Source: Steroidobacteraceae bacterium (lineage in GTDB: Bacteria > Pseudomonadota > Gammaproteobacteria > Steroidobacterales > Steroidobacteraceae). Taken from it: DNA of 64,000 nt. A program made the position numbers and the translations under genes. The notes beneath the pieces were generated by a model that made no database searches, had not been told where the DNA came from, and saw only the letters and a list, made by a program, of their open reading frames with translations. Where the stretch lies: assembly GCA_036494165.1 (NCBI GenBank), contig DASXOQ010000084.1:40859-104858 (forward strand), read 5' to 3'. Positions within the stretch are counted from its first letter, which is position 1. Every line of letters begins with the position of its first letter. Below, piece after piece: positions 10,248-32,852 of this stretch.

Positions 10248-10501
10248 GGCGCGCCGGCCGCGCCCTGAAGCTGCAGGCAGTTTTCACAGGTCTGACCCTT
10301 CGCATAGGCTGGAAATTTCTTGGCGTCGACCTGCGCGGCGGATTCGACGTAGCCGAGCTTCGCCGCCTGAGGATCCTTGGGGTCGAGGTGGGGCGCCTCG
10401 GCGGCTTGCGCGCCCTTCGCGAGCGCGACAACGGCGCCGGCGCCCAGGCCGAGTCGGATGAGCGCCGTGCGGCGCGAAAAGCGTTGCGGTTGCGATTTCA
10501 T
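10169..10501 (-). CDS. High-potential iron-sulfur protein (HiPIP) with Tat signal
   Basis: Tat motif SRRTALIRLGLGAG...AQA. The four cluster cysteines have HiPIP spacing: GQTCENCLQL...PCTVFPGKTVAVAGWCSSW. Start at the ATG giving MKSQPQRF. Confidence 0.85.
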   Translation of the reverse strand: MKSQPQRFSRRTALIRLGLGAGAVVALAKGAQAAEAPHLDPKDPQAAKLGYVESAAQVDAKKFPAYAKGQTCENCLQLQGAAGAPYRPCTVFPGKTVAVAGWCSSWTPEI

Positions 10502-10575
10502 GGGACTGACCTCGTTTCTCGATGACCGACCGTAAGGGCACATTTTGCTATGCTTTTGCGCTTTTGGAAGTCCTT

Positions 10576-10947
10576 ATGCCGTATCAAGTTCCGCTGCAGA
10601 GGCTCGCACAGGTGGCATTCTTCGCCGCGGTCATTTTCACCTTCTACAGCGCGGTCATACCGCCCACCGAGGCCGTGCAGTTGGTGCCCTATGACAAGGC
10701 AGAGCACTTCATGGCGTTCTACGGCCTCACCGGCCTCGCTGCCGCGGGCTTTCCGCGCTTGCACGTGCTCATCATCGGCGCGGCGCTGTCAGGGTTCGGC
10801 GCTTTGATTGAAGTGGTTCAGGGCCTGCCTTTCGTGCACCGGGACGAGGATTTCTGGGATTGGGTCGCCGATACGGCGGCGGTTGCCGCTGCGCTTTCAC
10901 CCATGCTGCTGGTGGGTTGGCGCGGTCTGTTCAAGCCGCGTCAGTAG
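10576..10947 (+). CDS. VanZ-like small membrane protein
   Basis: Four predicted TM helices plus the motif YDKAEHFMAFYGLTGL typical of the VanZ-like family. Start chosen at the ATG giving MPYQVP. Confidence 0.55.
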   Translation: MPYQVPLQRLAQVAFFAAVIFTFYSAVIPPTEAVQLVPYDKAEHFMAFYGLTGLAAAGFPRLHVLIIGAALSGFGALIEVVQGLPFVHRDEDFWDWVADTAAVAAALSPMLLVGWRGLFKPRQ

Positions 10948-12128
10948 AACATCGACACGAAGATCTGATAGACGTTCGCGTCGAAATTGTAGAGAGGCTC
11001 TTCGCCCACCGGGAAGCCGCCGCCGGCCGGGGTGTCGTTGAAGTTCTTGATGTTGCGGAAGTCGCTGTACTTGAACTGCAGGCGGGTGTACTCGCCCGTC
11101 ACGGTGCCGCGCTTGAAGATGTGCAGGCAGCCGGTGGGGCAGAACGCCCAGGTGCCCTTCAGGTCCAGCTGGTTGTTGATCGATGCGGCGAGATTCTTGT
11201 CGCGTCCCTCGAAGTTGAACTCATCGGGCTGCGTGAACAGGTCGCTGTAGAAGGTCGCGGCCGTCTGGTTGTAGTGACGCAGGCGCGCTTCGATGATGAA
11301 CCTGTTCGAGAACGGCTGGGTGTAGCCGAGCTCTTCGGTGTTGGCACGGATGCCCCAAGTGTCGTTGAAATAGCGATACGACAGCGCCACTGCAGCGCGG
11401 TAGGGGAGGTAGTACTTGCCGCGCACCTCCACTGCGGTGCTGGTGTGGGTGTTGGGATAAATCTGCGATGCGAGGCTGTATCCCAAGGCGGCGGTGGGAT
11501 CGATGTAGCGCACCGAGCGATAGGGATTGCTCAGAAGACCCTGGTCGGTGATCACTTCGAGCGTTGCGCCGGTGATGAAATTCTTGGTGATGATCTGCGA
11601 GACGCCGGCTTCGTAGCTGCGGCTCTCGGCGTGCCCCAGCCAGCTGACCTTCGGGTCGTTGGCCGTGCCGTTGTTCTCGCCGACCTTGTCGCGGCTGTCG
11701 GAGAAGCCCAGCGACACGGTGGTCAGATCGCCGAACATGTCCTGACTCAGGGAGAAGTGCACGGTGTTGGAGGTGTAGTCGCGCTCCGAACTCTGCGTGT
11801 AGGCAAGATTGTAGGTGGTCTTGTCGTGGATGAATTCCAGCGACAGGCTTTTCTGCTTGCGCTCGTCCTTGATGACGCTGGCGTTGGACAGCACGTCCAC
11901 CGAGGCGCCGCTCACCTTGTCGATGAAGTAGTTGCCTTCGACGGCGAAGTTCTCGCCGAACTTCTTGCGCACCAGCACCGACTCGCCGGTGATGTCCATG
12001 CCGCCGCCCTTGTAGCTGCTGTAGAAAATGTCGGCGCGATCGTCCGGCAGCACTGCGCTGCCGACGTTCATCGAGACGAGCACGCCCCAGGCGGCAGCGA
12101 GGCATAACAGTGGTGCGCGCAAATTCAT
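10941..12128 (-). CDS. DUF3570 family predicted outer-membrane beta-barrel protein
   Basis: Signal peptide, alternating beta-strand pattern and aromatic C-terminus (...FVSMFY). The N-terminal block DIFYSSYKGGGMDITGESVLVRKKF... is typical of DUF3570. It follows DUF4266 and TlpA genes, the usual DUF3570 neighbourhood. Confidence 0.7.
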   Translation of the reverse strand: MNLRAPLLCLAAAWGVLVSMNVGSAVLPDDRADIFYSSYKGGGMDITGESVLVRKKFGENFAVEGNYFIDKVSGASVDVLSNASVIKDERKQKSLSLEFIHDKTTYNLAYTQSSERDYTSNTVHFSLSQDMFGDLTTVSLGFSDSRDKVGENNGTANDPKVSWLGHAESRSYEAGVSQIITKNFITGATLEVITDQGLLSNPYRSVRYIDPTAALGYSLASQIYPNTHTSTAVEVRGKYYLPYRAAVALSYRYFNDTWGIRANTEELGYTQPFSNRFIIEARLRHYNQTAATFYSDLFTQPDEFNFEGRDKNLAASINNQLDLKGTWAFCPTGCLHIFKRGTVTGEYTRLQFKYSDFRNIKNFNDTPAGGGFPVGEEPLYNFDANVYQIFVSMFY

Positions 12129-12161
12129 GCAGGGATCAACTCTCGCGATGGCGCAGTTGCA

Positions 12162-12386
12162 TCAATTGCAACCGCAGCCGCCGCCCGCCGTGCCGGTAGC
12201 GCCGCGCGAACCTTCGCGGGACTCGCGGATGTGATCAAGGTAGGCGCTCGAGATCGCGTCCCGATCCCAGGCCATGATGGGGTCGGCCAGGCGGTCGCGT
12301 TCATACGGCTTGACCCAGGGGTTGATGCTGCAACCCTGCAGCATCAACCCTGCGCAAAAGAGAAAAATTGCCGGCATGGCTTTCAT
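12162..12386 (-). CDS. DUF4266 lipoprotein ending in GGGCGCN
   Basis: Lipobox LMLQGC, the conserved PWVKPYERDRLADPIMAWDRD block, and a C-terminal TGTAGGGCGCN tail typical of DUF4266 (recalled from memory). Confidence 0.7.
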   Translation of the reverse strand: MKAMPAIFLFCAGLMLQGCSINPWVKPYERDRLADPIMAWDRDAISSAYLDHIRESREGSRGATGTAGGGCGCN

Positions 12387-12390
12387 GGGA

Positions 12391-12897
12391 TTACTCGCGA
12401 ATCAATTGGCGAATTCGATCCTGGTACTCGTTTTCGTCGCCGGGCTTGTAGCCGCGGTGGATGTAGCGGATCTGGCCTTTCTTGTCGACGATCACCGTGC
12501 TCGGCATTTCATCCACGTGGTAGGCCTTGCTCACCTGGTTCGCCGGATCCAGCAGCACCGGGAAGCTGACGGGCTTGCGGGCCAGCAGCTCCTTCACGGG
12601 CGGCGCCTCCTTGTCGACGTTGATGCCGATCAAGGTGAAACCGGCCGGTTTGTACTTCTTGTACATCTGGTCGAGCAGCGGCATTTCCTGCTGGCACGGA
12701 CCGCACCAGGTGGCCCAGAAATTGACCATCACCACATTGCCCTTGTACTGGCTCAGGGCGCCGGGGTGGCCGGACAGGTCGGTGAGCGAGAAGGAGGGCG
12801 CAGGACCGCCGCTGTCGGCAGCGAAGGCGCCCGCCGAGGCGATGACGATGGCCGCCATCGCGCAGCGCTTCCAGATGTTCAGTTTCGAAAATTGCAT
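12391..12897 (-). CDS. TlpA-family periplasmic thiol:disulfide oxidoreductase
   Basis: Signal peptide, active site FWATWCGPC and thioredoxin fold. Strong GGAG RBS. Lies 4 nt upstream of the DUF4266 gene. Confidence 0.9.
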   Translation of the reverse strand: MQFSKLNIWKRCAMAAIVIASAGAFAADSGGPAPSFSLTDLSGHPGALSQYKGNVVMVNFWATWCGPCQQEMPLLDQMYKKYKPAGFTLIGINVDKEAPPVKELLARKPVSFPVLLDPANQVSKAYHVDEMPSTVIVDKKGQIRYIHRGYKPGDENEYQDRIRQLIRE

Positions 12898-12907
12898 AAG
12901 TGTCTCC

Positions 12908-13579
12908 TCAGAAGAATACCGACAAGCCCATGGTGGCTTCGATGTTGTGCACGTTCTTGGTCCGGCCGGTCAGATCGGTCTCGAACACGTGATCGCGCAC
13001 GTCCAAGTGCATTGCCAGCCAGTCCGTTATCAACAGCCGGTCACCCACTCCGAAGTTCAGAGCGAACTGATCCTTGTCGGCGAATTTCACATCGCCCATG
13101 CCGAAGGTCGCGTACAAGGCGTTGTTGAACGCGCGTCCCCGCCCGAGAAAGATCTCGCCGGGAAGCACGTTGTAGCCCAGGTCGATGTCGTAATACGTGA
13201 AATACCTCCCAGACTCGCTCACCACCGTGATGTTGGGAAATACGTCCTCCAGGCTGGTGGTGCCCGCCTTGGAGCGGCCCACGAAACCCTCCAGGAAGAT
13301 GTCCTCGGTGACGTGGTACGCCGCGCGCACACCGTAGAGTGGATTGGTGCCGAAATCCTGGATGCTCAGTGCGCCGAAGTAGCCGCCCACCTCGAAGTCC
13401 TTCGCCTTGATATGCGGCGTCTTCACCTTGCGGCGCGGCACCTGCGGTTCGACGATGGTCGGCTCCGCCTCGGTTTCCTCTGCGACGACCGGTTGCGGTC
13501 CCTTGTGACCGCGGTGAAACCAGCTGCAGCCGGACAACAAGATCGCGGCTAAAAGAACACAGCCAAGTCTACTTTCCAT
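12908..13579 (-). CDS. Outer-membrane beta-barrel lipoprotein
   Basis: The ATG at 13579 gives MESRLGCVLLAAILLSGC (lipobox). Alternating beta-strands; C-terminal ...MGLSVFF. The first 31 nt overlap the upstream gene. Confidence 0.65.
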   Translation of the reverse strand: MESRLGCVLLAAILLSGCSWFHRGHKGPQPVVAEETEAEPTIVEPQVPRRKVKTPHIKAKDFEVGGYFGALSIQDFGTNPLYGVRAAYHVTEDIFLEGFVGRSKAGTTSLEDVFPNITVVSESGRYFTYYDIDLGYNVLPGEIFLGRGRAFNNALYATFGMGDVKFADKDQFALNFGVGDRLLITDWLAMHLDVRDHVFETDLTGRTKNVHNIEATMGLSVFF

Positions 13580-14283
13580 TCGTCCGGTTCCTGGTTCTGG
13601 TTTTGGTTGGTGAAAATCACGTACTTGCGCCAATCGGCGCGCCACATGAAGCGGCGGGTGATGAAGCCACGGCCGCCGAGCGAGATATACGCCATTTGAT
13701 TGCTGTCCTGCTGCGGCGCCGGCGGTGCCTTGTCCTTGATGTACTGCCAGCCGAAGCCGATCCCGGCGGTCGGCGAGATCCATTTCCACTCCGGGATGAA
13801 GGTGTGACGCATGCCGATGGTCGTCATGTAGCGGTTGTCGATGGTGCCGAAGGCCTGCTGCACGACGAATTCCACATCGAGGCTGGTGGTGAGACCGAAA
13901 TCGCCATATGCCGTCACCAAGTTCTCGTGGTTGAACACGCCATAGCCTGCGCCCACCTCCCAGCGGTGCGTGGCGAACTCAGGGTAAGGCGGAATCGGCG
14001 CCGGCTCGCCCGAGGCCAGCAAGGTTCGCGCCAGATCGTCGCGCCGCACCCATCCTTCTTGTCCATGCGGTGCCCGCACCCGATACCAATCGGTGCGGCT
14101 GTAGAGCACTGTGACCACTTCGTCGCGTTCGGCCACATAGACCACCGGAAACCCGCGGCCCGGACCCGAATGCATTTCCAGGAACGGCTGCGCGACCACC
14201 AGCTCGAGCGGCGGGCGCCTTGCGTGTGCGGTTCCAAGATGTAACGCCTGCAGCAACAGCAGTAGCGCGAGCAGACGTCGCAT
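13549..14283 (-). CDS. Secreted SH3-domain + outer-membrane beta-barrel protein
   Basis: Signal peptide MRRLLALLLLLQALHLGTAHA. Bacterial SH3-like block (VVTVLYSRTDWYRVRAPHGQEGWVRRDDL), then a barrel-like C-terminal half ending ...VDLAVFF. Confidence 0.6.
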   Translation of the reverse strand: MRRLLALLLLLQALHLGTAHARRPPLELVVAQPFLEMHSGPGRGFPVVYVAERDEVVTVLYSRTDWYRVRAPHGQEGWVRRDDLARTLLASGEPAPIPPYPEFATHRWEVGAGYGVFNHENLVTAYGDFGLTTSLDVEFVVQQAFGTIDNRYMTTIGMRHTFIPEWKWISPTAGIGFGWQYIKDKAPPAPQQDSNQMAYISLGGRGFITRRFMWRADWRKYVIFTNQNQNQEPDEWKVDLAVFF

Positions 14284-14287
14284 TAGT

Positions 14288-16963
14288 TCAGTTCGCCACC
14301 GGTGCAACGAATGGATCGTTGTAGAACTGGGCGCCTATATCCAGCCACTCTGAGATCAACCGCAATTCCCCTGGCGTCAAGTAACCGGTGTGGTCCACCG
14401 TCGCTCCGTGGTCGGTACCGTCGAACTTCGACAGGAAGCTCGTCTGTGAGGCGAGGGCGCTGCCGGCCGCCATCGGCGGGTTCAAGACCACCGGTCCCGG
14501 CACGTCCTGCAAGATGCCCATATTAAGCGCCTGCTCATTATGTTGAAACAGCAGGATCTCATAGGATTGCAACACCGTGGGATCGATATTGCTGCTGATC
14601 GAGGTGAGGTCGAGCTGGCCGGCCGGCACCTGCACCACGTTGTTGGCGGTCGGGGCATGGCAGTTGGTGCAGGTCACGTTGGTCGCAACACCGTTCACCA
14701 TGGCGGTTCGCGAGGCCAGACTCCACATCGACTGCAGGAACGGCAGGCTCATGGAGGCCGCATTGGCGTAATGGATGGTGATGCGACATTGCGCGCTCCA
14801 CGGCACGCAGTTGGCGTTGGTGGGCGGGGACTCGTTGAGCCCGCCGACCCCGGAATAGGTCAGCGAAATGGCCGCATCGGTGTCGCCGGCCGGCAGGGTC
14901 ACGCCCTGCGTCCAGAGGGCGGTGTACAGCACGTCGGAAGTCATGAGCTGCGAGCAGGTCGTGCCGCTGCCCTTTGCGCAGCTGATGCGCGCAAGGGTCT
15001 GCGCCATGGTCTCGCCCTGGTTGGCAAACAGCGATGCGCTGGTGTTGGGGAAGGGCAGTCCGGTGGTGGGCGCCCCCGCATTCACCGCCACGGTGAGCCC
15101 CGCGCGGCCATGGGAGGTGCCGGTGGCCGTGGAGTGGCAGCCGTTACATTGCTTGATCTCGCCAGGGATCAGCTGCAGCCAGCTGGTATGCCGCGATCCG
15201 ATGCGGCGTGCGTTCTTGTCGAGCACGTCGATGGTGAAAGGCACGTTGGCCGGCACCTGGATCTGCACCGAACCGTCCGGCTGCACGGGGGCGTAGCCCA
15301 AGATCTCGCGCATCCCCATGCCGGCCGGGCCGAAGGCTGAGTTGTTGATCTTGCGCACCGTCTTGTCGGGTATCTCCACGGCCTTTTCGATGCGCACGAA
15401 GCGGGCGCTCCGGGAATAGAAGGACGCCTGGCTGGGATCGGCGGTGGCGGCGATGCTCGGTTTGGCCGTGTCGGTGCCGTCGAAGTCGTAGACGCTCGAG
15501 ATGTCGAGGAGCCCGACCCCGGCGTTGATCATGTTCGCTTGATCGGTGGTGGGGGTGGTCACGGCCGGAAACGAGGGCACCGGCAGGCGCGCCTGCATCA
15601 CCACCGGCTCGACCACCATCATGCCCTGCTCGGCGCCCAGCACCGGGCCCAGGGTGCCGGCGCTGAAGTCATAAATCCAAAGCGTGTACTGCGGCGGTGC
15701 CAGCTGCACATTGGTGCCGGCGGTATTGGTGCTGTTGCAGATCTCGGTCGCCCCCGAAACCATCACCATGCAAGGCGACCAGCTCACCAGCATGCGGTTG
15801 GTGCCGTCGTACAGCGGGTAGGCTGAGTAGAAGCGGCCGCCGAGGGAAGGCATGCTCGCATCGGTGGTCACCCCGAGGTCGGTGGCCTGAACCTGCCCGG
15901 TGACCGCCGGGTTCACGGCGGCCGGGGAGGTCGAGGAACTCGCTTGGTGGATGTCGACATAGTTGGCGGTGTCGAGCAAAAGGATGTCGCCGCCGAGCTG
16001 GGTGTTTTGCAGCGGCCGGTCGATGACGACGAGCTTGCCGTCGGCGCGCTCGCGCGCGTTCAAGAATTGGATGACGTTGTTGCTGGTGCCGGCGATGTTC
16101 GCGCCGGTGGCATGGCTGTTGGCGCCGTAAAGAAGCTGCAACCCGGTTCCGTCGACATTGGCGGTGTAAAGGCTGATCTGGTCGCCGTTGGTGACTTCCC
16201 AGCGGCTGAACACGATGTGGCCATCCGCCAGAAGCGAGGGTGCGAAGTCGTGGTTGGTGTTGAAGCTGATCTGACGCATGTTGGTGCCGTCGGCATTCAT
16301 CACGTGCAAGAGAAAGATGAACTGCTGGCGGTCATCGGTCACCGCCTGGTACTGCGGACGTCCTTCATCGAGCAGGATCGACTTGGTTGCGAGCTGTCGG
16401 GTGGAGGCGAACACGATCTTGCCGTCCGCGAGGTAGTGCGGCGAAATGTCGTGTCCCGAGGTGATGTTGTCGAAGGTCAGCTGGGTGACCACCTTCGCCC
16501 CGGCATCGTACTGGTAGATCTTCCAGTTCGGCTGCTTCGGATCGGTGTTCTTCAGATTGGGGTTGAGCGGCATGCGCAGCGAGAAGATCAGTTTCTTGCC
16601 GTCCGGTGAGACGTCGAGGTCCCGGACATCGCCCTGGCCGGTGGTTATGGCGCCGGTGACATTGGTTTCCAGTCCGCCGGCGCTCGCCTGCGCGCGCACA
16701 TACAGGTCGCCGCCGGTGATCGAGGTGATCAGATCGCGAACGTCGATGTCGTTTTTAGGCACGGGCTTCTTGATGTACGCCAGCGGATAGTTGGTAACCC
16801 CCGGCGTCAGCGACTCGCCACCGGCGAGGCCCGGCGCATGTCCGGTCGGGGCGGAGTTGCAGCCGAACAGAATCGCCCCGGCGGCGAGCAGGGCGAGCGC
16901 TCGCAATCCGTGACGCATGTCACGTCTCAATCCGGTCGTAGTTTTTTGCATCGTGCTACCCAT
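14288..16963 (-). CDS. Beta-propeller (PD40/TolB-like) lipoprotein with two CxxCH haem-binding motifs
   Basis: Lipobox ILFGC. PD40-like repeats (DVSPDGKKLIFS, SPHYLADGKIVFAS, APSLLADGHIVFSRWE). C-terminal CxxCH motifs in IKQCNGCHS and VTCTNCHAP. The start could be 16963 or 16951. Confidence 0.75.
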   Translation of the reverse strand: MGSTMQKTTTGLRRDMRHGLRALALLAAGAILFGCNSAPTGHAPGLAGGESLTPGVTNYPLAYIKKPVPKNDIDVRDLITSITGGDLYVRAQASAGGLETNVTGAITTGQGDVRDLDVSPDGKKLIFSLRMPLNPNLKNTDPKQPNWKIYQYDAGAKVVTQLTFDNITSGHDISPHYLADGKIVFASTRQLATKSILLDEGRPQYQAVTDDRQQFIFLLHVMNADGTNMRQISFNTNHDFAPSLLADGHIVFSRWEVTNGDQISLYTANVDGTGLQLLYGANSHATGANIAGTSNNVIQFLNARERADGKLVVIDRPLQNTQLGGDILLLDTANYVDIHQASSSTSPAAVNPAVTGQVQATDLGVTTDASMPSLGGRFYSAYPLYDGTNRMLVSWSPCMVMVSGATEICNSTNTAGTNVQLAPPQYTLWIYDFSAGTLGPVLGAEQGMMVVEPVVMQARLPVPSFPAVTTPTTDQANMINAGVGLLDISSVYDFDGTDTAKPSIAATADPSQASFYSRSARFVRIEKAVEIPDKTVRKINNSAFGPAGMGMREILGYAPVQPDGSVQIQVPANVPFTIDVLDKNARRIGSRHTSWLQLIPGEIKQCNGCHSTATGTSHGRAGLTVAVNAGAPTTGLPFPNTSASLFANQGETMAQTLARISCAKGSGTTCSQLMTSDVLYTALWTQGVTLPAGDTDAAISLTYSGVGGLNESPPTNANCVPWSAQCRITIHYANAASMSLPFLQSMWSLASRTAMVNGVATNVTCTNCHAPTANNVVQVPAGQLDLTSISSNIDPTVLQSYEILLFQHNEQALNMGILQDVPGPVVLNPPMAAGSALASQTSFLSKFDGTDHGATVDHTGYLTPGELRLISEWLDIGAQFYNDPFVAPVAN

Positions 16964-17306
16964 TATTCGGTTACGCGGCGAAGTTCACAGTTCGCACGTC
17001 GGACAGAAGCGCCCCGATGCCATCCTACTGAACTTAATGGTCCCATAATCGCATCATCGTTCGGGGATGCAGAGCATTCTGTTAACGCACTCACAGAAGA
17101 ACTTCGCTGCATACGATTCTCTGTGCATTCAGTAGACGCGGTGTGCGAACTGCGTTGCAGGATACGAGTGCAAAACGGGCTTTCGGTACTGTCGCGAATC
17201 GCCGACGTCGTGCCCCAGAGACATTCCTGCACGGGTTTTTACCCACGTATATTCGCGCCACGTCGAAACCGCAACACAGATACGGAACGTGAACATGGAG
17301 CATGGG

Positions 17307-18494
17307 ATGGACAAGCTAAGAGCACTTACGATCACCGCGGCCGCAGTGATTGGCGCGCTGACGTCCGCGGGTTCAGCCAGCGCTGCCGGCCCGACCGCCG
17401 ACCAGGCGACGCGCATGTACAACCGCATCGCCGGCGTGCCGCCAACCGCGCAGCAGCTGTCGAACATGATGGCGAGTTCGGATCTGGTCAACGCGGCGCT
17501 GATCGCCACCCAGGACCCCTCGTTCTACAACAACACCATCCGCAACATGGCGACGCCATGGACCAATCGCGATCAGACGGTGTTCGCTCCCTTGAACGAC
17601 TACACCGCCACGGTGGTCGGGATGGTGCGCGATGACGTTCCTTTCAATACGCTCCTGAGCGCCGACCTGGTCTACGTCGCCGACTCCGCAGCCGGGGTAC
17701 CGGCCTACTCACCGTCGAACAACGCCATGTACGACGCCATGGATTCAAAGAACGTCGATCTGAAGGCGCACCTGCAGTCGGCCACCCAGTCGACCCTGCA
17801 GGGTATCCCTTCGACGGCAACCGCCGGTGTCATGACCACGCGTGGCGCAGCGAGTGCTTTCTTCATCAACGGCACCAACCGGGCGATGTTCCGCTTCACC
17901 ATGCTGAATCATCTGTGCCATGACCTGCAGACCGTGATGGACATTACCCGACCGCCCGATCGCATCCGCCAGGACGTGACGCGCAGCCCCGGCGGCGTGT
18001 CCACGCTCTTCTTGAACAACTGCATCGGCTGCCACAGCGGCATGGATCCGATGGCGCAGGCCTTCGCCTATTACAATTTCAGCGCCACCGACGCGACCAT
18101 GACCGACACCACCGGCCAGATCGTGTACACCGCCGGCCAGACGCAGGCGAAATACCACATCAACAACCTGAACTTCCCGCAAGGGTTCAACACGCCGGAT
18201 GATGCGTGGGAGAACCGCTGGCGCGCCGGCCCCAACCAGCTGTTGGGCTGGAGCACCAACCCCAGCTACAAGGGCAGCGGCAATGGCGCGAAATCCCTCG
18301 GCCAGGAGCTCGAGAACTCCGAGGCGTTCGCCTCCTGCCAGGTCACCCGCGTGTTCAAACAAGTCTGCCTGCGTTCTCCGGCAAGCGCGCAGGACATTTC
18401 TCAAGTTGCCACCATGACCCAGTCGTTCCAGTCAGGCTATGTGCTGCGGCAGGTGTTTGCGCAAAGCGCGGCCTACTGTGCGACGAGTCTGTAG
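17307..18494 (+). CDS. Secreted protein with one CxxCH motif (Planctomycete-cytochrome PSCyt3/DUF1588-like block)
   Basis: GGAG lies 6 nt upstream of the ATG at 17307 (alternatives: GTG 17289, ATG 17295). Signal peptide MDKLRALTITAAAVIGALTSAGSASA. Motif FLNNCIGCHSGMDPMAQAF. Confidence 0.7.
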   Translation: MDKLRALTITAAAVIGALTSAGSASAAGPTADQATRMYNRIAGVPPTAQQLSNMMASSDLVNAALIATQDPSFYNNTIRNMATPWTNRDQTVFAPLNDYTATVVGMVRDDVPFNTLLSADLVYVADSAAGVPAYSPSNNAMYDAMDSKNVDLKAHLQSATQSTLQGIPSTATAGVMTTRGAASAFFINGTNRAMFRFTMLNHLCHDLQTVMDITRPPDRIRQDVTRSPGGVSTLFLNNCIGCHSGMDPMAQAFAYYNFSATDATMTDTTGQIVYTAGQTQAKYHINNLNFPQGFNTPDDAWENRWRAGPNQLLGWSTNPSYKGSGNGAKSLGQELENSEAFASCQVTRVFKQVCLRSPASAQDISQVATMTQSFQSGYVLRQVFAQSAAYCATSL

Positions 18495-18504
18495 GAACGT
18501 GACC

Positions 18505-21036
18505 ATGAACATGCACACGAGCACTAGACACATGATGAGCCACATGAAGTTCTCACGGATCGGAGCGCTGCTCGCGCTGGCAAGCACCCTGGTACTCAGC
18601 GCCTGCGGCGGCGGCGGTGCCCCCACCACCGCCAACGAAGTTGCCGGTACCGGCACCAGTTCGGTGAACGCTTACACCGGACCCGCGCCTGCCACGGCGG
18701 ACGTGCAGGCCTTCGAGGTGAACCTCTGGCAGAACATCCGCGGCCAGAACCGCTGCGGCGCCTGCCACAACGCGACCACCCCGGCGCAGATGCCGAACTT
18801 CGCGCGCTCGGACGATGTGAACCTTGCCTATGCGCAGGCGAACACCGTGGTCAACCTTCAGAATCCCTCGACCTCGTTGATGGTCACCAAGGTGGCCGGC
18901 GGTCACAACTGCTGGCTTGCGGACCCGTCTGCCTGCGGTCAGATCTTGACCACTTGGATCAGCAATTGGGCGGGCGCCACCGGCACCTCGTCCGCCACCA
19001 CGGTGCAGCTGGTCGCTCCGGTCGACACAACCGTCGGCCAGAGCCTGAACTTCCCGAACGACAACGGTGCGCTGTACGGCAGCACTATATATACGGTCAC
19101 CAGCCATTACTGCGTCGGCTGCCATACGCCCTCGTCGGCCACCGCGCAGTCGCCGTACTTCGCATCGCCCGACCTTCCCAACGCCTATCAGGCGGCCATC
19201 CCCAAGATCGATTTGTCGGGATGCGTGCCCTTCAATGCGACCACCTGCGGCACCAACTCGCGCTTCTATCAGCGCCTGCTCACCGACATGCATAACTGCT
19301 GGGACAACTGCGCGCAGGATGCCGCCATCATGCTCACGCAGATCCAGAATTTCGCCAAGGCGCTGACGCCCACCAACATCGACCCGTCGCTGGTGGTGAG
19401 CCGCCAGCTGCCCTTGAGCCAGGGCACCATCGCTTCGGGTGCGAACCGCTACGACGCGGATACGATCGCCAAGTACGAATTTCAGGAGATCGTCAATAAC
19501 ACCGCATTCGACACCAGCGGCGTCGACCCGTCTGCCGACCTGACTTTGAGCGGTTCAGTGACCCTTGCGGGAGGCTGGGGCGTGAACATCGGCGCCGGCG
19601 GCAAGCTGCAGGCCACCACCGCCGCGTCCGCCAAGATTTTCAACCAGATCCAGGCCACGGGCGAGTTCTCGGTCGAGGCATGGGTGGCCCCGGCCTTGGT
19701 CGCAGCCGACAAGTCCTACATGGTGAGCTACTCGGGCGGCGACACCACCCGAAACTTCACCCTGGGACAGACCAACCAGAACTACGACTTCATGGCGCGC
19801 AGCTCGGGCTCCGACCTGAACGGCATGCCGCAGCTCGCGACGCCCACCGCGGATACCGTCCTGCAGGCCTCGCTGCAGCACGTGGTGCTCACCTACGATC
19901 CGATCAACGGCCGCCAGATCTACGTCAATGGCGTCAACACCGGCGTCATGGACCCGCAGAAGGGCGGCACGATCTCCAACTGGGACAGCACCTTCGCGCT
20001 GGTCCTGGGCAACGAGGTATCGAGCGACCGCTCCTGGCAGGGCCTCATCAAGTTCGTGGCCATCCATAGCCGCGCGCTCACCCAGGCCCAGATCACGCAG
20101 AACTTCAACGCGGGCGTCGGCCAGCGCTACTACGTGCTGTTCGATGTCTCGGCGGTGACCGGCGTGAGCAAGGGCTACGTGATGTTCACCGTCAGCCAGT
20201 ACGACAGCTACAGCTACCTGTTCGACCAGCCGACCTTCGTATCGCTCGATTCGACGGTCACCTCGTCGAATCTGCCGAGCATCGCCATCAAGGGCATCCG
20301 CATCGGCTTGAACGGGCTGATTCCGCAGGTCGGCCAGGCCTACATCCCGCTCAACACCACCGTCACTGGGGCGAACTACAAGCCAACCGGCGAGGTGCTG
20401 TCGAACATCGGCACGGTCATCGGGCTGCAGAATGCCTCGACCGACACCTTCTTCCTGTCATTCGACCAGCTCGGCAGCCACACCCACGTGGTCACTGATC
20501 CGGTGCCGGCGCCTGAGGCACCGGTGGCTGGACCGACCGTGGCAGACGTCGGTGTGCGTTCCTTCGCCGAGGTGAATGCCACGCTCTCCATGCTGACGGG
20601 CGTGCCCAGCACCAACTCCGCGGTGAGCGCCACCTATCAAGCCGTGCAGCAGCAGCTGCCGGCGACCAACACCCTGGAGAGCTTCTCCTCCTCCAACCAG
20701 GTGGGTGTGGCGCAGCTGGCGATCCAGTACTGCAACGTGTCGGTCCAGAATGCGAGCTACGCCGCGGTCATGATGCCGGGAGTCACGGTGAGCGCCTCGA
20801 CACTGTCGAGTCCGGCGGGCGTCAGCCAGGTGACCAGTGCGCTCGCGGCACGGGTCTTGGGCAGCAGCCAGCAGGTGAACGTCCCTGCCGCTTCGACCAT
20901 CACCAACGAGCTCGGCACCCTGATCAACACTCTGTGCACGACCCAGGCCTGCTCGGGCAATCTGGCGCGCACCCAGTCGGTCATTGCCGCCGCGTGCGCC
21001 GCCAGTTTCGGCAGCGCCAACATGTTGATCAAGTAA
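18505..21036 (+). CDS. Lipoprotein with two CxxCH modules and a LamG (laminin-G/concanavalin-like) domain
   Basis: AGGAA RBS before the ATG at 18505. Lipobox LVLSAC. Haem motifs RCGACHN and YCVGCHT, each followed by an HNCW...C block. LamG-like region ...SLQHVVLTYDPINGRQIYVNGV...WQGLIKFVAIHSRALTQAQI. Confidence 0.75.
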   Translation: MNMHTSTRHMMSHMKFSRIGALLALASTLVLSACGGGGAPTTANEVAGTGTSSVNAYTGPAPATADVQAFEVNLWQNIRGQNRCGACHNATTPAQMPNFARSDDVNLAYAQANTVVNLQNPSTSLMVTKVAGGHNCWLADPSACGQILTTWISNWAGATGTSSATTVQLVAPVDTTVGQSLNFPNDNGALYGSTIYTVTSHYCVGCHTPSSATAQSPYFASPDLPNAYQAAIPKIDLSGCVPFNATTCGTNSRFYQRLLTDMHNCWDNCAQDAAIMLTQIQNFAKALTPTNIDPSLVVSRQLPLSQGTIASGANRYDADTIAKYEFQEIVNNTAFDTSGVDPSADLTLSGSVTLAGGWGVNIGAGGKLQATTAASAKIFNQIQATGEFSVEAWVAPALVAADKSYMVSYSGGDTTRNFTLGQTNQNYDFMARSSGSDLNGMPQLATPTADTVLQASLQHVVLTYDPINGRQIYVNGVNTGVMDPQKGGTISNWDSTFALVLGNEVSSDRSWQGLIKFVAIHSRALTQAQITQNFNAGVGQRYYVLFDVSAVTGVSKGYVMFTVSQYDSYSYLFDQPTFVSLDSTVTSSNLPSIAIKGIRIGLNGLIPQVGQAYIPLNTTVTGANYKPTGEVLSNIGTVIGLQNASTDTFFLSFDQLGSHTHVVTDPVPAPEAPVAGPTVADVGVRSFAEVNATLSMLTGVPSTNSAVSATYQAVQQQLPATNTLESFSSSNQVGVAQLAIQYCNVSVQNASYAAVMMPGVTVSASTLSSPAGVSQVTSALAARVLGSSQQVNVPAASTITNELGTLINTLCTTQACSGNLARTQSVIAAACAASFGSANMLIK

Positions 21037-21061
21037 GCAAAAGGATATTGAAGAGGTTCTT

Positions 21062-22678
21062 ATGCGTAGAAAGAAGCCAGCACCGGGACTGAACCAGCCC
21101 TTGTACCACTTGGGTCACTCGAAGCCGCGCTCTCGCCGGGAATTTCTCGCGCAGGGTTTTCTCACCGGTGCCGCCACCGTGGTGGGCCCCTCGCTCCTGG
21201 GCATGCTGGGCGTACCGAAGGAGGCCCAGGCTGCCTTGGCGCCCGACCTTCAGGCCCTGCTGCCGGGGTGTCAGATCACTACCGGTGCGGGCAAGATCCC
21301 CTTCATCTGCTTCGACCTCGCGGGAGGCGGCAATATCGCCGGCTCCAACGTGTTGGTCGGCGGTCCCAAGGGCCAGCTCGATTTTCTTTCGGTCGCGGGC
21401 TACAACAAGCTTGGACTGCCGGGCACCATGGTGCCGAACTCGAGCACCACCGGCAGCTTCGTCGATTCGAGCCTGGGCCTCCGCTACCATTCCGACAGCG
21501 CTCATCTTCGCGGCATCAAGGCACGCGCCAGCGCCGCCGCCATGGCCGGCACCAACGGCACCGTGATACCGGCGCTGTCGCAGAACGACACCAACACCAA
21601 CCCGCACAACCCGATGTACGCCATCTATCAGTATGGCGCGCGCGGTGCGCTGCTCAATCTGATCGGCTCCGACAACTCGCAGTCGGGCGGCAATTCCATG
21701 GCACCGCCCTCGATGGTGATCGCCGAGGCGATGCCCACCAAGGTGTCGAGTCCGGCGGACACCGCCGGTCTCGTCAGCACCGGACAGTTGGGCACGCTTC
21801 TGCCGAATGCCTCCGATGTAACCAGCGTCATGGAATCGATGAAGCGCATCAGCGACGCCAAGTACGGCAAGGTCACTGCCTACACCAGCGCCACCATGAA
21901 CTCAGCGGCGCTAGGCACCACCGGCATCGAGGCCTGCAGCTTCACAAAGGCGGCCTACATCGTCGACAAGTACAACGACCCGGGTTCGGTGAACCCGGCG
22001 CTCGATCCCAAGATCGTCGGTCCGAGCGGCATCTTCAGCACCGCGGAGTTCCAGAGCAACTCGGACTATCAGACCACCGCCTCCATCATGAAGCTGGTCA
22101 TCGACGGCAATGCGGCCGCCGGCACCATCGAGATGGGCGGCTTCGACTATCACACCGGCGATCGCTCCACGGGTGAAGCGAGGGACTTGAACCTCGGCAA
22201 CTGCATCGGCGCGGTGCTCGAGTACGCCAAGCGCGCCGGCAAACCGGTGATGATCTATGTGTTCACCGACGGTTCGCTTGCTTCCAGCGGCATGATCGAC
22301 AGCTCGGCCGGCGGGCGGGGCAAGGGCGTGTGGACCGCGGACAACCAAAGCGTGGCCGCCACCTACTTCTTGGTTTACAACCCGGCGGGCAAGGCGCAGA
22401 CGGCCATGAGCGGCATCGAGTCGAGCTTGCAGATCGGCAATTTCAACCCCGACGGTTCGCTCAACACCAACGGCAGCCCGGCGGGCAACAACGTGTTCAA
22501 CCTGGTGCAGATGGTGGTGCTCAACTACATCGCCCTGCACGAGGCGGATGCGGCGGATGTCTTCGCCAATCTCTATCCGCCGGCCATGCAGAACAACACG
22601 CTCGGCACCGGCTCCGCGCTTCAGTCGCTGATCGCCTGGCAGCCGCTCGCGGGCCTGGTGAACGGCAAGGTAATCTGA
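21062..22678 (+). CDS. Tat-exported DUF1501/DUF1552-like (alkaline-phosphatase/sulfatase-fold?) protein
   Basis: Twin-arginine motif SRREFLAQGFLTGAA. The block IEMGGFDYHTGD resembles the GG(W/F)DTH motif of DUF1501. It follows the CxxCH proteins, as in Planctomycete PSCyt/DUF1501 pairs. Confidence 0.6.
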   Translation: MRRKKPAPGLNQPLYHLGHSKPRSRREFLAQGFLTGAATVVGPSLLGMLGVPKEAQAALAPDLQALLPGCQITTGAGKIPFICFDLAGGGNIAGSNVLVGGPKGQLDFLSVAGYNKLGLPGTMVPNSSTTGSFVDSSLGLRYHSDSAHLRGIKARASAAAMAGTNGTVIPALSQNDTNTNPHNPMYAIYQYGARGALLNLIGSDNSQSGGNSMAPPSMVIAEAMPTKVSSPADTAGLVSTGQLGTLLPNASDVTSVMESMKRISDAKYGKVTAYTSATMNSAALGTTGIEACSFTKAAYIVDKYNDPGSVNPALDPKIVGPSGIFSTAEFQSNSDYQTTASIMKLVIDGNAAAGTIEMGGFDYHTGDRSTGEARDLNLGNCIGAVLEYAKRAGKPVMIYVFTDGSLASSGMIDSSAGGRGKGVWTADNQSVAATYFLVYNPAGKAQTAMSGIESSLQIGNFNPDGSLNTNGSPAGNNVFNLVQMVVLNYIALHEADAADVFANLYPPAMQNNTLGTGSALQSLIAWQPLAGLVNGKVI

Positions 22679-22684
22679 GCACGA

Positions 22685-22712
22685 CGCGCGTGCGACCTAA
22701 GTCGCACGCGCG
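22685..22712 (+). terminator. Intrinsic terminator hairpin after the DUF1501-like gene
   Basis: Perfect 12-bp stem cgcgcgtgcgac / gtcgcacgcgcg with a ctaa loop, starting 7 nt after the stop and followed by the T-rich attgtcttct. Confidence 0.7.
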
Positions 22713-22844
22713 ATTGTCTTCTCGTGCCGACACCTTGCGGCGAGCGATGCGCCCAGCTCCGCTGAGCGTCGCGGCAAGTGAATCAATATTTCACGAATGT
22801 GCGCCAAGTCATACTGGGACCTGGAAAAGGTACCCTTTGCCGCG

Positions 22845-22874
22845 TTGACACTGCGGCTTGCAGTGTGCGATTTT
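22845..22874 (+). promoter_or_regulatory. Candidate sigma70 promoter for the riboswitch-led operon
   Basis: Perfect -35 TTGACA (22845-22850), an 18-nt spacer, then an extended -10 TGcGATTTT (22866-22874). The predicted TSS at about 22881-22883 lies immediately 5' of the aptamer. Confidence 0.4.
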
Positions 22875-22883
22875 GCATAAGTC

Positions 22884-22965
22884 TGATCAGGGCAAACTCG
22901 CCGAAAGGCGAGGGCGCAAAGCTTCCGGTCTACGGGTCTTCCTAGGACAGCGGGGTTACCAGCGT
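22884..22965 (+). promoter_or_regulatory. c-di-GMP-I (GEMM-I) riboswitch aptamer
   Basis: GAUCAGGGCAAAC UCGCC GAAA GGCGA GGGCGCAAAGC UUCC GGUCUACGG GUCUU CCUAGGAC AGCGGGGUUACCAGC. All conserved blocks of the class-I aptamer, as recalled from V. cholerae Vc2, occur in the same order: AGGGCAAAC, a GAAA-capped first hairpin, GCGCAAAGC, a second hairpin, and AGCGGGGUUACC. Confidence 0.85.
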
Positions 22966-22977
22966 GATTGATGCATT

Positions 22978-23010
22978 GCTGCGCACCGGCGTCAGCGTAC
23001 GTTTCTTGGG
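22978..23010 (+). terminator. Candidate riboswitch expression-platform hairpin / attenuator
   Basis: Stem gctgcgc (22978-84) / gcgtcagc (22989-96): 7 bp with one bulge and an accg loop. The U-rich gtacgTTTCTTgggTTCTT follows. The 3' arm can alternatively pair with gacgcc (23017-22) next to the start codon. Confidence 0.4.
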
Positions 23011-23022
23011 TTCTTAGACGCC

Positions 23023-23538
23023 GTGAGACATCCCGGTATGCGTGGCCTATTGCTGACTGGCGTCATTTTGACGGGCGCGCTGTGCGCGACCGGCAGCGCC
23101 GCGCCGCCGTCGCTGCTTGGCAAGGAGGCGCCCGACTTCGCGCTGCGCGCCATGGACGGTCACAACGTTCGCCTCTCGGAATATCGCGGCGAAGTGGTGC
23201 TGGTGAATTTCTGGGCGCGTTGGGAAGGTGACTCGCGCCAGCAGATGCAGGCGCTCGATCACATCAACGTCACCTATCAGCGCGCCGGACTCGTGGTGCT
23301 CGGCATCTCGGTCGATGAGGATCAGCGTCGCGCACGCGAGTTCGCGACATCGATGGCGGTCTCCTATCCCATCCTGTTCGACACGGGAGCCACCATCGGC
23401 AAGGATTATCTGCTGCAAAAGATGCCGGTCACTTTACTGATCGACCGTTCGGGCGTCGTGCGCTATTCGGTTGTCGGCTACAAGCGCGGCGACGAGCAGG
23501 CTTATTTGGAACAAATCCGCGCACTGCTGCGGGAATAA
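23023..23538 (+). CDS. Secreted thioredoxin-fold (TlpA-like) protein lacking the CxxC active site
   Basis: Clear paralogue of 12391..12897, with VVLVNFWARWEGDSRQQM in place of VVMVNFWATWCGPCQQEM and a shared C-terminus (...GYKRGDEQAYLEQIRALLRE vs ...GYKPGDENEYQDRIRQLIRE). Signal peptide present. Start is GTG 23023 or ATG 23038. Confidence 0.8.
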   Translation: MRHPGMRGLLLTGVILTGALCATGSAAPPSLLGKEAPDFALRAMDGHNVRLSEYRGEVVLVNFWARWEGDSRQQMQALDHINVTYQRAGLVVLGISVDEDQRRAREFATSMAVSYPILFDTGATIGKDYLLQKMPVTLLIDRSGVVRYSVVGYKRGDEQAYLEQIRALLRE

Positions 23539-23552
23539 ACGTAGGTCTTTGT

Positions 23553-24206
23553 ATGAATTTCAATGTTCGAGTGACCGTTCTTCTTCTCAGCGCCGTGTTT
23601 GGGCTGAGTGCCGCCGCTCAACAGCCGGCACCGGCCACGCCGCAGACGCCGGCGCCCGCGACGCAGGCCCCGGCCGCTCCCGCCGATGCGCCGCCGCCCG
23701 CGGCGCAGGCCCCAACTGCTGATGCACCACCGCCCGCCGCCGATGCGCCATCCGGAGACACCAAGACGCTCGATCAGGAGGTACAGGGTCTCAAGAAGGA
23801 CGTCGTGGACCTCAACAAGGATCTCTTCGTCCTGCAGGAGGAACTGCTGTTCCCCGCCAACACGCAGGTTGCCGTCTACGTGTCCATGGACGTGGGCGCC
23901 TTCTTCGCGCTCGACTCGGTGCAGGTGAAGATCGACAACAAGGAAGTCAAGAACTACTTGTATACCGCCCGCGAGGCACAGGCGCTGCTGAAGGGCGGCG
24001 TGCAGCAGATTTACCTCGGCAACGTCAAAGTCGGCAAGCACGAGCTGGTGGCGTTTTTCACCGGCAAGGGACCCGCCGAGCGCGACTACAAGCGCGGCGC
24101 CACCATAACTTTCGAGAAAGGCGTGGGGGCCAAGTATCTGGAACTCAAGATCACGGATCGTGTTCCCAAACACCAGCCCGAGTTTTTGATCAAAGATTGG
24201 GAATGA
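23553..24206 (+). CDS. Secreted Pro/Ala-rich + coiled-coil + beta-rich domain protein, function unknown
   Basis: Signal peptide MNFNVRVTVLLLSAVFGLSAAA. PA-rich repeats (ADAPPPAA x2), a short coiled coil (LDQEVQGLKKDVVDLNKDLFVLQEEL), then a beta-rich C-terminal domain. Confidence 0.7.
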   Translation: MNFNVRVTVLLLSAVFGLSAAAQQPAPATPQTPAPATQAPAAPADAPPPAAQAPTADAPPPAADAPSGDTKTLDQEVQGLKKDVVDLNKDLFVLQEELLFPANTQVAVYVSMDVGAFFALDSVQVKIDNKEVKNYLYTAREAQALLKGGVQQIYLGNVKVGKHELVAFFTGKGPAERDYKRGATITFEKGVGAKYLELKITDRVPKHQPEFLIKDWE

Positions 24207-24209
24207 TGC

Positions 24210-30130: not shown

Positions 30131-30203
30131 GTCATAGCCTATTTTACGGAATCTGTTGAAATCTTAATGATGCAAAGCACGAGTTTTTTCTAGGAGCGCG
30201 CAG

Positions 30204-30902: not shown

Positions 30903-30929
30903 AGCAAAGAACGCAAAGACAGCCAACGC

Positions 30930-31927: not shown

Positions 31928-31928
31928 C

Positions 31929-32848
<920 letters not shown>

Positions 32849-32852
<4 letters not shown>

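Follow-up and report, generated by a model that had tools for sequence, protein, structure and literature searches.

A conserved divergent nine-gene locus of Steroidobacteraceae as a candidate extracytoplasmic redox module

Introduction

What does a bacterium do with a locus in which every product leaves the cytoplasm? This question is raised by a stretch of DNA from a Steroidobacteraceae bacterium (GenBank assembly GCA_036494165.1, contig DASXOQ010000084.1, positions 40,859 to 104,858), which we call the window and which comprises 64,000 nucleotides with a G+C content of approximately 62-63%. Exact or near-exact matches of its proteins assign it to a metagenome-assembled genome of this family from soil. 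A first-pass annotation, made from the letters of the window alone, had described nine divergently arranged genes for exported proteins, which we label g1-g9 and locate by their positions within the window. Here we report that these genes, which encode a putative thiol-flavin trio (g1-g3), two further barrel-like proteins (g4, g5), a relative of hydrazine synthase alpha (g6), two cytochrome-like proteins (g7, g8), and a protein exported by the twin-arginine translocation (Tat) pathway (g9), are kept together across diverse loci, and we evaluate whether they may constitute one redox module of the cell envelope.

The locus combines three building blocks, each known as conserved but unexplained, and their fixed nine-gene union is not described in the literature that we searched. 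One block is related to proteins with PSCyt and PSD domains, which reportedly go back to Studholme in 2004. In bacteria of the Planctomycetes-Verrucomicrobia-Chlamydiae (PVC) group, a PSCyt cytochrome, sometimes with a Laminin_G_3 domain, is paired with a Tat-exported DUF1501 or DUF1552 protein, and such modules have been interpreted as serving electron transport targeted to the membrane, without an assigned function (Kamneva et al., 2012, PMC3542564; He et al., 2017, PMC5615132). A second block is represented by hundreds of non-anammox proteins named "HZS_alpha domain-containing", none of which has a confirmed function; key residues of hydrazine synthase alpha are missing from these homologs, their clades differ in gene context, and homologs with beta-gamma partners occur in Planctomycetota and Desulfobacterota (Hagglund et al., 2025, PMC12758564). 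Nothing in the literature searched links Steroidobacteraceae to hydrazine synthase homologs.

The third block is the neighborhood of DUF3570, DUF4266, and a TlpA-like protein, which the first-pass annotation had called recurrent and without an assigned function. The trio does recur, being accompanied by ApbE or DsbD in many phyla, and it is not without a proposed role: ApbE was shown to attach flavin covalently to a DUF3570 protein of Chlorobium at two [S/T]GA[S/T] sites, the CxC end of DUF4266 was pointed out, and the DUF3570/DUF4266/thioredoxin-like trio was proposed to form a DsbD-fed hybrid thiol/flavin path for extracytosolic electrons, with its function described as uncertain (Meheust et al., 2021, PMC8238504). 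The claim that no characterized system has the composition of the nine-gene locus has held up, as we found none in the literature searched on DUF3570.

Results

Nine genes for exported proteins form two divergent operons

Open reading frames and their translations place the nine genes in two divergent operons, one on the minus strand (10941-16963) and one on the plus strand (17295-22678), and the gene call that JGI made independently for this contig contains the same nine genes. Domains were assigned through profile searches of Pfam and NCBIfam, the latter of which returned no match for g1, g2, g7, g8, or g9. The minus-strand operon begins at the divergent junction with g6 (14288-16963), which encodes a lipoprotein with a PD40/TolB-type propeller, an HZS_alpha domain, and two CxxCH motifs, and for which the JGI gene call chose an alternative ATG start at 16918. 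Next come g5 (13549-14283), a Sec-exported protein whose SH3_3 domain precedes a small C-terminal half that resembles a beta-barrel; g4 (12908-13579), a lipoprotein with an OMP_myx_plus (TIGR04565) barrel domain; g3 (12391-12897), a TlpA/ResA-type periplasmic thiol-disulfide oxidoreductase of the Redoxin/AhpC-TSA type with a WCGPC motif; g2 (12162-12386), a DUF4266 (PF14086) lipoprotein of 74 amino acids; and g1 (10941-12128), a DUF3570 (PF12094) protein predicted to form an outer-membrane beta-barrel. The spacings from g6 to g1 are 4, -31 (an overlap), 10, 4, and 33 nt, in agreement with the overlaps and gaps of 33 nt or less in the first-pass annotation.

The plus-strand operon encodes a Sec-exported protein with a single CxxCH motif (g7, 17295-18494), a lipoprotein with two CxxCH motifs and a Laminin_G_3 domain (g8, 18532-21036), and a Tat-exported protein of 538 amino acids without a Pfam, NCBIfam, or PDB match (g9, 21062-22678). 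For g7 we use the start at 17295, and the one at 17307 in the first-pass annotation is also possible, as is a lipoprotein start of g8 at 18544. The operon is closed, as had been annotated, by a terminator-like hairpin (22685-22712) with a 12-bp stem that contains 10 G-C pairs and a T-rich tail, with ATTGTCTTCT directly after the stem.

Export signals could be read from the translations of all nine products: lipoboxes in g2 (LQGC), g4 (LSGC), g6 (LFGC), and g8 (LSAC), Sec signal peptides in g1, g3, g5, and g7, and the Tat motif SRREFL in g9, where [ST]RRx[FL][LIV] was present in every ortholog examined. An aspartate at position +2 is absent from all orthologs of the four lipoproteins. The last two residues of g1, g4, and g5 are FY or FF, and the aromatic end is kept in their orthologs, with FF at the C terminus of 76 of 81 g5 orthologs. 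Overall, seven of the nine products carry signatures of an outer-membrane location. The barrel domain of g4 is supported by matches to TIGR04565 (E 5.2e-43) and OMP_b-brl (E 1.2e-6); g5 matched SH3_3 (E 1.1e-10), and its match to OMP_b-brl was weak and below threshold (E 0.0033). The five CxxCH motifs, of which two lie in g6, one in g7, and two in g8, are invariant in ortholog alignments down to 35-48% identity. On these points, namely a divergent locus with nine exported products, three barrel-like proteins with aromatic ends, and five CxxCH motifs, the first-pass annotation was accurate.

The nine genes stay together amid unrelated flanks

To follow the locus across genomes, we used g6 as the query for relatives in two collections. 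One genome per GTDB species yielded 14 full-length relatives, and JGI metagenome contigs yielded 591 confirmed matches, 80 of which were retrieved. The other eight proteins were placed by tblastn, and for each gene we counted the loci whose contig is long enough to test; individual loci are referred to by L numbers. The expected position and orientation were found for g9 in 44/44 testable loci, g8 in 49/49, g7 in 66/66, g5 in 80/80, g4 in 74/74, g3 in 68/68, and g2 in 63/63, and for g1 in 51 of 52. All nine genes were seen in 45 loci, and the G+C content of loci with the module ranges from 39 to 71%. Separation of the two operons in other genomes is what the first-pass annotation had named as evidence against itself, and we found them co-conserved, including amid unrelated flanks.

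Because the wider neighborhood is also syntenic in Steroidobacteraceae, loci with differing flanks are the informative ones. L011, from a metagenome-assembled genome (MAG) of Aliikangiella (Oceanospirillales; 39% G+C; g6 38% identical), contains the nine genes in the same order between housekeeping flanks unrelated to those of the window, with RNase T and DUF3224 genes on one side and M13 peptidase and DUF885 genes on the other. All nine genes also occur in L115 (47% G+C), where g6 has 1114 amino acids and is 39% identical to g6 of the window, and where the neighbors are genes for MarR, a NapC/NirT-type cytochrome, hemerythrin, and ferredoxin. L088, L095, and L099 contain the module amid yet other flanks, and L114 (52% G+C) and L113 contain its parts as far as their short contigs reach. 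The partner genes are missing from two Planctomycetota loci that encode HZS_alpha proteins 26-27% identical to g6 (L015, L017), which indicates that the module is specific to this g6 subfamily. Taken together, these observations lead us to regard the nine-gene locus as a discrete unit under selection.

Two irregularities were observed among these loci. Frameshift-like breaks interrupt module genes in L008, L010, L011, L013, and L014 (for example, g9 is split at L011:4259-5879), and these breaks in GTDB MAG loci are probably long-read assembly errors rather than pseudogenes. In L008, g1 is missing after an apparent rearrangement.

The trio g1-g3 resembles a proposed thiol-flavin electron path

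The assignment of g1 to DUF3570 is firm (PF12094, E 8.1e-42, 143.9 bits against a cutoff of 25). The protein contains a candidate ApbE flavinylation site, D-K-V-S-G-A-S, at residues 70-76, in which SGAS occupies residues 73-76 and D70 lies ahead of it. Among 55 orthologs, all of the commonest variants at this site fit D-x-[VI]-[ST]-[GS]-A-S, with the core S[GS]AS. A second motif, TGAT at residue 186, is not conserved among these orthologs, which suggests that it occurs by chance. For g2, the match to PF14086 (E 1.4e-22) is accompanied by a C terminus of the form [ASV]GGGCGCN, which contains the CxC pair, in 26/26 orthologs. The Pfam matches of g3 are to Redoxin (E 1.2e-31) and AhpC-TSA (E 1.6e-30), its best NCBIfam match is ResA at 125.6 bits, which is under the 170-bit cutoff, and its WCGPC motif is kept in at least 90% of 68 sequences. 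A profile search against the PDB yielded no relative of g1.

We also asked whether ApbE, the flavinylating enzyme, accompanies the module. Among the 23 distant-clade loci with enough flank, an ApbE gene (PF02424, E 1e-78 and 1.5e-82) directly adjoins the module in nine, lying 17-63 nt after g1 in L067, L070, L073, L088, L103, and L107 and downstream of g9 in L079, L080, and L098. This association supports the g1 proteins of the module as flavoproteins, with flavin mononucleotide (FMN) predicted at the candidate residue Ser76. Furthermore, its varying place, following g1 in one group of loci and g9 in another, suggests that either operon can acquire accessory genes of the flavin branch.

g6 is a full-length relative of hydrazine synthase alpha

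The first-pass annotation had described g6 as a beta-propeller lipoprotein with two CxxCH motifs; these features are present, and the description had missed a full-length kinship to the alpha subunit of hydrazine synthase. Along with PD40 repeats, g6 matched PF18582 (HZS_alpha) above threshold (E 4.2e-16), and it aligned to chain A of the hydrazine synthase structure 5c2v in three colinear segments (E 1.8e-7) that correspond to the propeller, the middle heme domain, and the C-terminal heme domain. By its sequence, then, g6 is a full-length relative of hydrazine synthase alpha. Its CxxCH motifs are CNGCH in the middle domain (C606/C609/H610) and CTNCH in the C-terminal heme domain (C765/C768/H769), and both motifs and the lipobox cysteine are invariant in 39 sequences of 35-58% identity. 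The family is large, with 4577 clusters (50% identity) at E<=1e-3 and 477 at E<=1e-30.

In a phmmer alignment, H618 of g6 falls at the position of Tyr591, the unusual axial ligand of heme alpha-I in hydrazine synthase (GTSHGRA versus GSYRGRA). This histidine, which lies in the sequence SHGR, is at least 90% conserved, so the family might also have a non-standard heme environment. No homolog of the beta or gamma subunit was found among the other eight products or the flanking genes. Because the Tyr591 ligand is replaced by H618 and the beta/gamma partner subunits are missing nearby, we rejected the possibility that g6 is a hydrazine synthase.

g7 and g8 are cytochrome-like proteins

The single CxxCH motif of g7 (CIGCH-SGMDP) contains residues C239, C242, and H243, which are invariant in orthologs. 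When compared with Pfam, g7 of the window returned PSCyt3 alone (E 0.21), and no family was assigned. Among 21 orthologs, matches below the curated Pfam cutoffs were found to PSD2 (DUF1585) in 18 (best E 7.8e-6), PSCyt3 (DUF1588) in 17 (best E 0.019), and PSCyt2 in 6, which points to g7 as a remote relative of the planctomycete PSCyt3/PSD2 domains and a putative mono-heme protein. Profile searches found no PDB relative of g7 or g8.

In g8, two repeated CxxCH...GGHNCW units are followed by the Laminin_G_3 domain (LamG), which was matched with E 4.5e-21 and is present in 21/21 orthologs. Both CxxCH motifs (C71/C74/H75 and C190/C193/H194) are invariant, and 17 of the 21 orthologs matched Cytochrome_CBB3 (best E 7.7e-5); no PSCyt or PSD matches were found for g8, and its C-terminal segment of approximately 300 amino acids is without known relatives. 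An hhalign comparison of g7 with g8 yielded no match. Residues ~497-559 of g8, just past LamG, gave a marginal match (hhalign probability 47%, E 1.9e-4) with the region of g6 where its HZS_alpha middle domain begins, and we did not use this match. Many further cysteines are invariant in g6, g7, and g8. The first-pass suggestion of a periplasmic or outer-membrane redox or heme-dependent system is borne out insofar as the locus encodes a coherent, exported envelope system rich in heme- and thiol-redox motifs; that g6, g7, and g8 bind heme and that the module is redox active is what we infer from these motifs.

g9 may define a new family with an alkaline-phosphatase-like core

The product of g9 had been labeled DUF1501-like, a label that did not stand: no Pfam family was matched at E<=10 by g9 or by 15 diverse orthologs, and a profile search found no PDB match. 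More than 7000 homologs exist, all of them named "hypothetical". Invariant Asp, His, Ser, and Asn residues include D85, H143, D145, N175, D176, D362, H364, and D403, and we consider g9 a member of a new family and a candidate metalloenzyme. An AlphaFold2 model built from an alignment of 86 sequences, including a clade of 50-56% identity, reached pLDDT 74 and pTM 0.79; an initial model based on 34 homologs of 75-83% identity was unusable (pLDDT 40.6). The top 50 Foldseek matches of the model in the PDB are all weak and all belong to the alkaline-phosphatase superfamily, being alkaline phosphatases, cofactor-independent phosphoglycerate mutases, or PorX. The invariant D85, D362-Y-H364, and D403-G-S405 are, as sequence motifs, compatible with an alkaline-phosphatase fold. 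We regard an alkaline-phosphatase-like core in g9 as plausible.

Regulatory elements and neighboring genes

The divergent intergenic region (16964-17294) contains several non-coding blocks that are at least 85% conserved in 34 close-clade loci, for example, on the g6 strand, CACGACGTCGG..TTCGCGACAG, GTTCTTCTGTGAGTGCGTTAACAG, and ATTAAGTTCA. These blocks presumably comprise promoters and operators for both operons. No sigma-70 consensus promoter was found in 10400-23100, and a GGAAT-N15-CGTC element at approximately 17200-17226 resembles a promoter of the extracytoplasmic function (ECF) type. A planctomycete-type ECF sigma factor gene (PF07638, E 3.5e-44) overlaps by 4 nt a gene for an 897-aa Ser/Thr kinase-TPR protein (together 5381-8643, minus strand), and this pair is also found near the module in L103, where g6 is 42% identical; it is a candidate regulator.

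Downstream of g1 in the window lies a gene for a HiPIP (PF01355, E 7e-23; 10169-10501, minus strand). In L030, L044, and L055 it starts 6-50 nt after g1, so that HiPIP may be a tenth gene of the g1 operon in the close clade; the distant clade, L011, and L115 lack it. Different genes adjoin the module elsewhere. Directly after g1, L095 (16488-17456) and L099 (16277-17254) encode a DUF3187/Phenol_MetA_deg-type outer-membrane barrel (E 2e-36 and 2e-45), which is a further barrel attached to the module in these loci. Directly 3' of g9, six distant-clade loci (L079:2922-4304, L088:2837-4210, L080, L083, L094, and L096) contain a gene for a protein of 445-460 amino acids with Trm112-like, SAM-methyltransferase, and PqqD-like peptide-recognition regions; this gene is not in the window.

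On the g9 side of the window, a cyclic di-GMP-I-class riboswitch (22882-22964, plus strand; RF03167, the GGC variant; 64.1 bits against a gathering threshold of 59; E 1.7e-13) sits between the g9 terminator and a second TlpA-like gene, TlpA2. The same leader is found 5' of TlpA2 orthologs in L088 (RF03167, 69.2 bits) and in L001 and L094 (RF01051, 65.9 and 62.1 bits, respectively). TlpA2 (23038-23538) begins an operon-like, plus-strand block that continues with a conserved 217-aa protein (23553-24206; no Pfam match, called by JGI, 66-89% conserved), three TPR proteins (24210-26117, 26114-28918, and 28839-29615), a 172-aa protein (29612-30130), and ExbB, ExbD, ExbD, and TonB-like proteins (30204-32852). 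This block (23038-32852) and the riboswitch accompany the module in many loci, and in L088 the block is shifted to the g1 side. Because it is missing beside the module in L011, L095, L099, and L115, we consider the block accessory rather than core. A minus-strand open reading frame of 312 amino acids (23502-24440) was tried as a synteny marker and rejected as almost certainly spurious. It overlaps the gene for the 217-aa protein, and its apparent tblastn conservation of 45-59% arises because it is antisense to that conserved gene, which is a caution for lists of open reading frames in high-G+C DNA.

Farther out on the g1 side are genes for a GDPD phosphodiesterase, Ysc84, and a cluster of caspase-like and CHASE2 proteins. 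The Ysc84 gene and one resembling that for SAM hydroxide adenosyltransferase occupy 3572-5301 on the minus strand, and a CHASE2 sensor and a caspase-like Peptidase_C14/DUF4384 protein are encoded at 311-3570 on the plus strand, with a second Peptidase_C14/DUF4384 gene located just outside the window start on the JGI contig. The remaining window is housekeeping in character, with genes for phosphoenolpyruvate carboxylase, KefB, serine dehydratase, a TonB-dependent receptor, and glycogen metabolism.

Discussion

Based on these findings, we favor the reading that the nine genes encode one functional module, an outer-membrane-anchored extracytoplasmic redox enzyme system, with an overall probability of roughly 0.45. 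The general claim that they form one extracytoplasmic redox module is probable, and the particular electron path through g3, g2, g1, and the hemes, which we outline here, is a tentative proposal that may well be wrong in its details. A DsbD/CcdA-type protein, encoded outside the locus, would carry reducing equivalents from the cytoplasm over the inner membrane to the TlpA-like g3 (CGPC), which would hand electrons to the CxC pair of the DUF4266 lipoprotein g2. From there, electrons would move on to the FMN attached at Ser76 of the DUF3570 barrel g1 and be exchanged between this FMN and the five c-type hemes of g6, g7, and g8. Catalysis could occur at the HZS-alpha-type heme of g6 and/or at a putative metal site in g9. 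For holding the substrate we propose the LamG domain of g8, in which case the substrate would probably be a polymeric or surface-associated compound. A low-potential thiol/FMN relay suggests the reduction of an external substrate, whereas the HiPIP after g1 in the window's clade would suit an oxidative system that passes electrons to the respiratory chain.

Several points weigh against this reading. The two hints about direction conflict, as the thiol/FMN relay is of low potential and HiPIP of high potential. Most loci belong to the single family Steroidobacteraceae, where the wider neighborhood is also syntenic, and this weakens part of the co-occurrence argument. For the flavin branch, tblastn and Pfam annotations across the 64-kb window revealed no ApbE gene, the gene is absent from 30/30 close-clade loci, and the Pfam annotations for the window include no DsbD/CcdA-type protein. 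The Chlorobium DUF3570 protein has two flavinylation sites, of which, judged by motif, only one is conserved in g1, and g3 belongs to the Redoxin/AhpC-TSA family, not to PF13899 of the published DUF3570 clusters (PMC8238504). For the plus-strand operon, the PSD2 and PSCyt3 matches of g7 orthologs lie under the curated Pfam cutoffs (27 bits for PSCyt3), no HMM ties g9 to DUF1501 (PF07394) or DUF1552, and the Foldseek matches of g9 are weak (E 0.011-0.35, TM 0.09-0.22). Finally, heme attachment, flavinylation, localization, and the formation of a complex are all features that we infer.

Of the other explanations, the one that survives best, and that we nevertheless regard as unlikely, is that two independent systems lie back to back by descent: a flavin relay, g1-g6, serving the HZS-alpha-like lipoprotein, and a pair of cytochrome and Tat enzyme, g7-g9, with no shared function. 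DUF3570 trios, PSCyt/DUF1501 pairs (in PVC bacteria, without DUF3570), and HZS-alpha with beta-gamma each exist alone elsewhere, and synteny within Steroidobacteraceae extends beyond the module, as this explanation would have it. However, neither half is missing in any locus that extends far enough, the divergent layout persists amid the unrelated flanks of L011, L115, L088, L095, and L099, and ApbE follows g1 in some loci and g9 in others.

We consider it rather improbable that the locus is a substrate-oxidizing periplasmic cytochrome system, in which g6 and/or g9 would oxidize the substrate, electrons would flow from the c-type hemes through HiPIP to a terminal oxidase, and TlpA and DUF4266 would merely keep the CxxCH and other cysteines reduced during maturation, as ResA or CcmG does. 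Among NCBIfam models, ResA is indeed the one that g3 matches best, g6, g7, and g8 contain numerous invariant cysteines beyond those of the five CxxCH motifs, and HiPIP lies downstream of g1 in the window and within 6-50 nt of it in L030, L044, and L055. Yet HiPIP is restricted to the close clade, and the DUF3570/DUF4266 pair together with ApbE encoded in cis in nine loci favors a flavin cofactor over mere maturation.

It is also improbable, and by our estimate strongly so, that the module serves the reductive acquisition of iron or other metals, with the flavinylated barrel and the cytochromes reducing ferric or other metal complexes at the outer membrane in concert with the TonB/ExbBD block. 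This possibility draws on the link between flavinylation clusters, including 25 DUF3570 clusters, and iron transporters (Meheust et al., PMC8238504), on the TlpA2-h217-TPR-ExbB-ExbD-ExbD-TonB block, which accompanies the module and has relocated to its other side in L088, and on a TonB-dependent receptor that adjoins g9 in L099. The module itself, however, contains neither an iron transporter nor a TonB-dependent receptor, the TonB block is absent beside it in L011, L095, L099, and L115, and the LamG domain, the propeller, and the alkaline-phosphatase-like g9 would be left without a role. Very improbable, finally, is nitrogen-oxide or hydroxylamine chemistry, in which g6 would act like hydrazine synthase alpha by binding hydroxylamine, NO, or ammonia at the middle-domain heme: g6 is colinear with HZS-alpha, including the heme-alpha-I domain, but it has H618 at the HZS-specific Tyr591 position, no beta/gamma subunit homolog is encoded at the locus, and non-anammox homologs are without key residues and have no confirmed function (Hagglund et al., 2025, PMC12758564).

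The module, read as one redox system, can be compared with several known systems. Like the DUF3570 clusters of Meheust et al. (PMC8238504), it combines DUF3570 with [S/T][G/S]A[S/T], DUF4266 with a C-terminal CxC, and an adjacent periplasmic thioredoxin-fold reductase, and ApbE stands beside it in 9/23 distant loci. Unlike those clusters, neither the window nor the close clade shows ApbE or DsbD, the reductase is of the TlpA/Redoxin type rather than PF13899, and only one flavinylation site is conserved. In addition, the trio is always accompanied by two further barrels, the HZS-alpha-like cytochrome, and the three genes of the divergent cytochrome/Tat operon, an arrangement that is not in PMC8238504. 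Relative to hydrazine synthase alpha of Kuenenia stuttgartiensis (kuste2861, 5c2v chain A), g6 has the same order of propeller, middle, and C-terminal heme domains and both CxxCH motifs, but it is a lipoprotein with His618 at the Tyr591 position, and its locus is without the beta/gamma partners (CCP/MauG-like and seven-bladed propeller). It also differs from the HZS_alpha homologs of PMC12758564 in having no FG-GAP/CRTAC1 neighbor and in a context wholly different from that of clades I-IV. The plus-strand operon resembles the PSCyt/DUF1501 pairs of PVC bacteria in that exported CxxCH proteins, one with Laminin_G_3 (g8), are followed by a Tat-exported putative enzyme (g9), and in the sub-threshold matches of g7 orthologs to PSD2, PSCyt3, and PSCyt2. 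It differs in that it occurs in Gammaproteobacteria, two genes (g7 and g8) share the cytochrome part, g9 has no HMM similarity to DUF1501 or DUF1552, and the pair is locked to a DUF3570/HZS-alpha operon.

A looser analogy can be drawn with conduits of the outer membrane. Porin-cytochrome conduits of the MtrCAB type combine an outer-membrane barrel with periplasmic and lipoprotein c-type cytochromes encoded alongside it, an arrangement that the module would parallel, and the fused porin-cytochrome Cyc2 has a redox cofactor site near the N terminus of a barrel of approximately 400 amino acids, as g1 might. By the same analogy, the barrel cofactor here would be FMN rather than heme, and the cytochromes would carry one or two hemes, not ten. 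The PDB profile search with g1 found no sequence relationship to MtrCAB or Cyc2. The boldest version of this idea, which we offer as a long shot, is that a thiol-fed, flavinylated DUF3570 barrel replaces the multiheme porin-cytochrome conduit and is wired to a catalytic heme-propeller protein of the HZS-alpha type and to g9 as a new, Tat-exported metalloenzyme of the alkaline-phosphatase fold. If this were true, the abundant Steroidobacteraceae of soil could perform an undescribed extracellular or periplasmic redox conversion, with recalcitrant organic polymers, metals, or nitrogen compounds as conceivable substrates, and the same chemistry would account for the PSCyt/DUF1501 modules of Planctomycetes and Verrucomicrobia.

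The locus joins three unexplained themes, namely flavinylated DUF3570 systems (2021), non-anammox homologs of hydrazine synthase alpha (2025), and planctomycete-type pairs of a cytochrome and a Tat enzyme (2004-2017), remote versions of which are locked together in a unit of nine genes whose integrity is almost always preserved. Soil and peat metagenomes contain the module very commonly, and it occurs in MAGs assigned to Aliikangiella, a genus with cultured species, and to Steroidobacteraceae, a family in which some genera have been cultured. Should cultured strains carry the module, one genetic system could test all three themes together, and a function for the module would supply an envelope redox activity so far missing from the picture of a dominant gammaproteobacterial lineage of soil.

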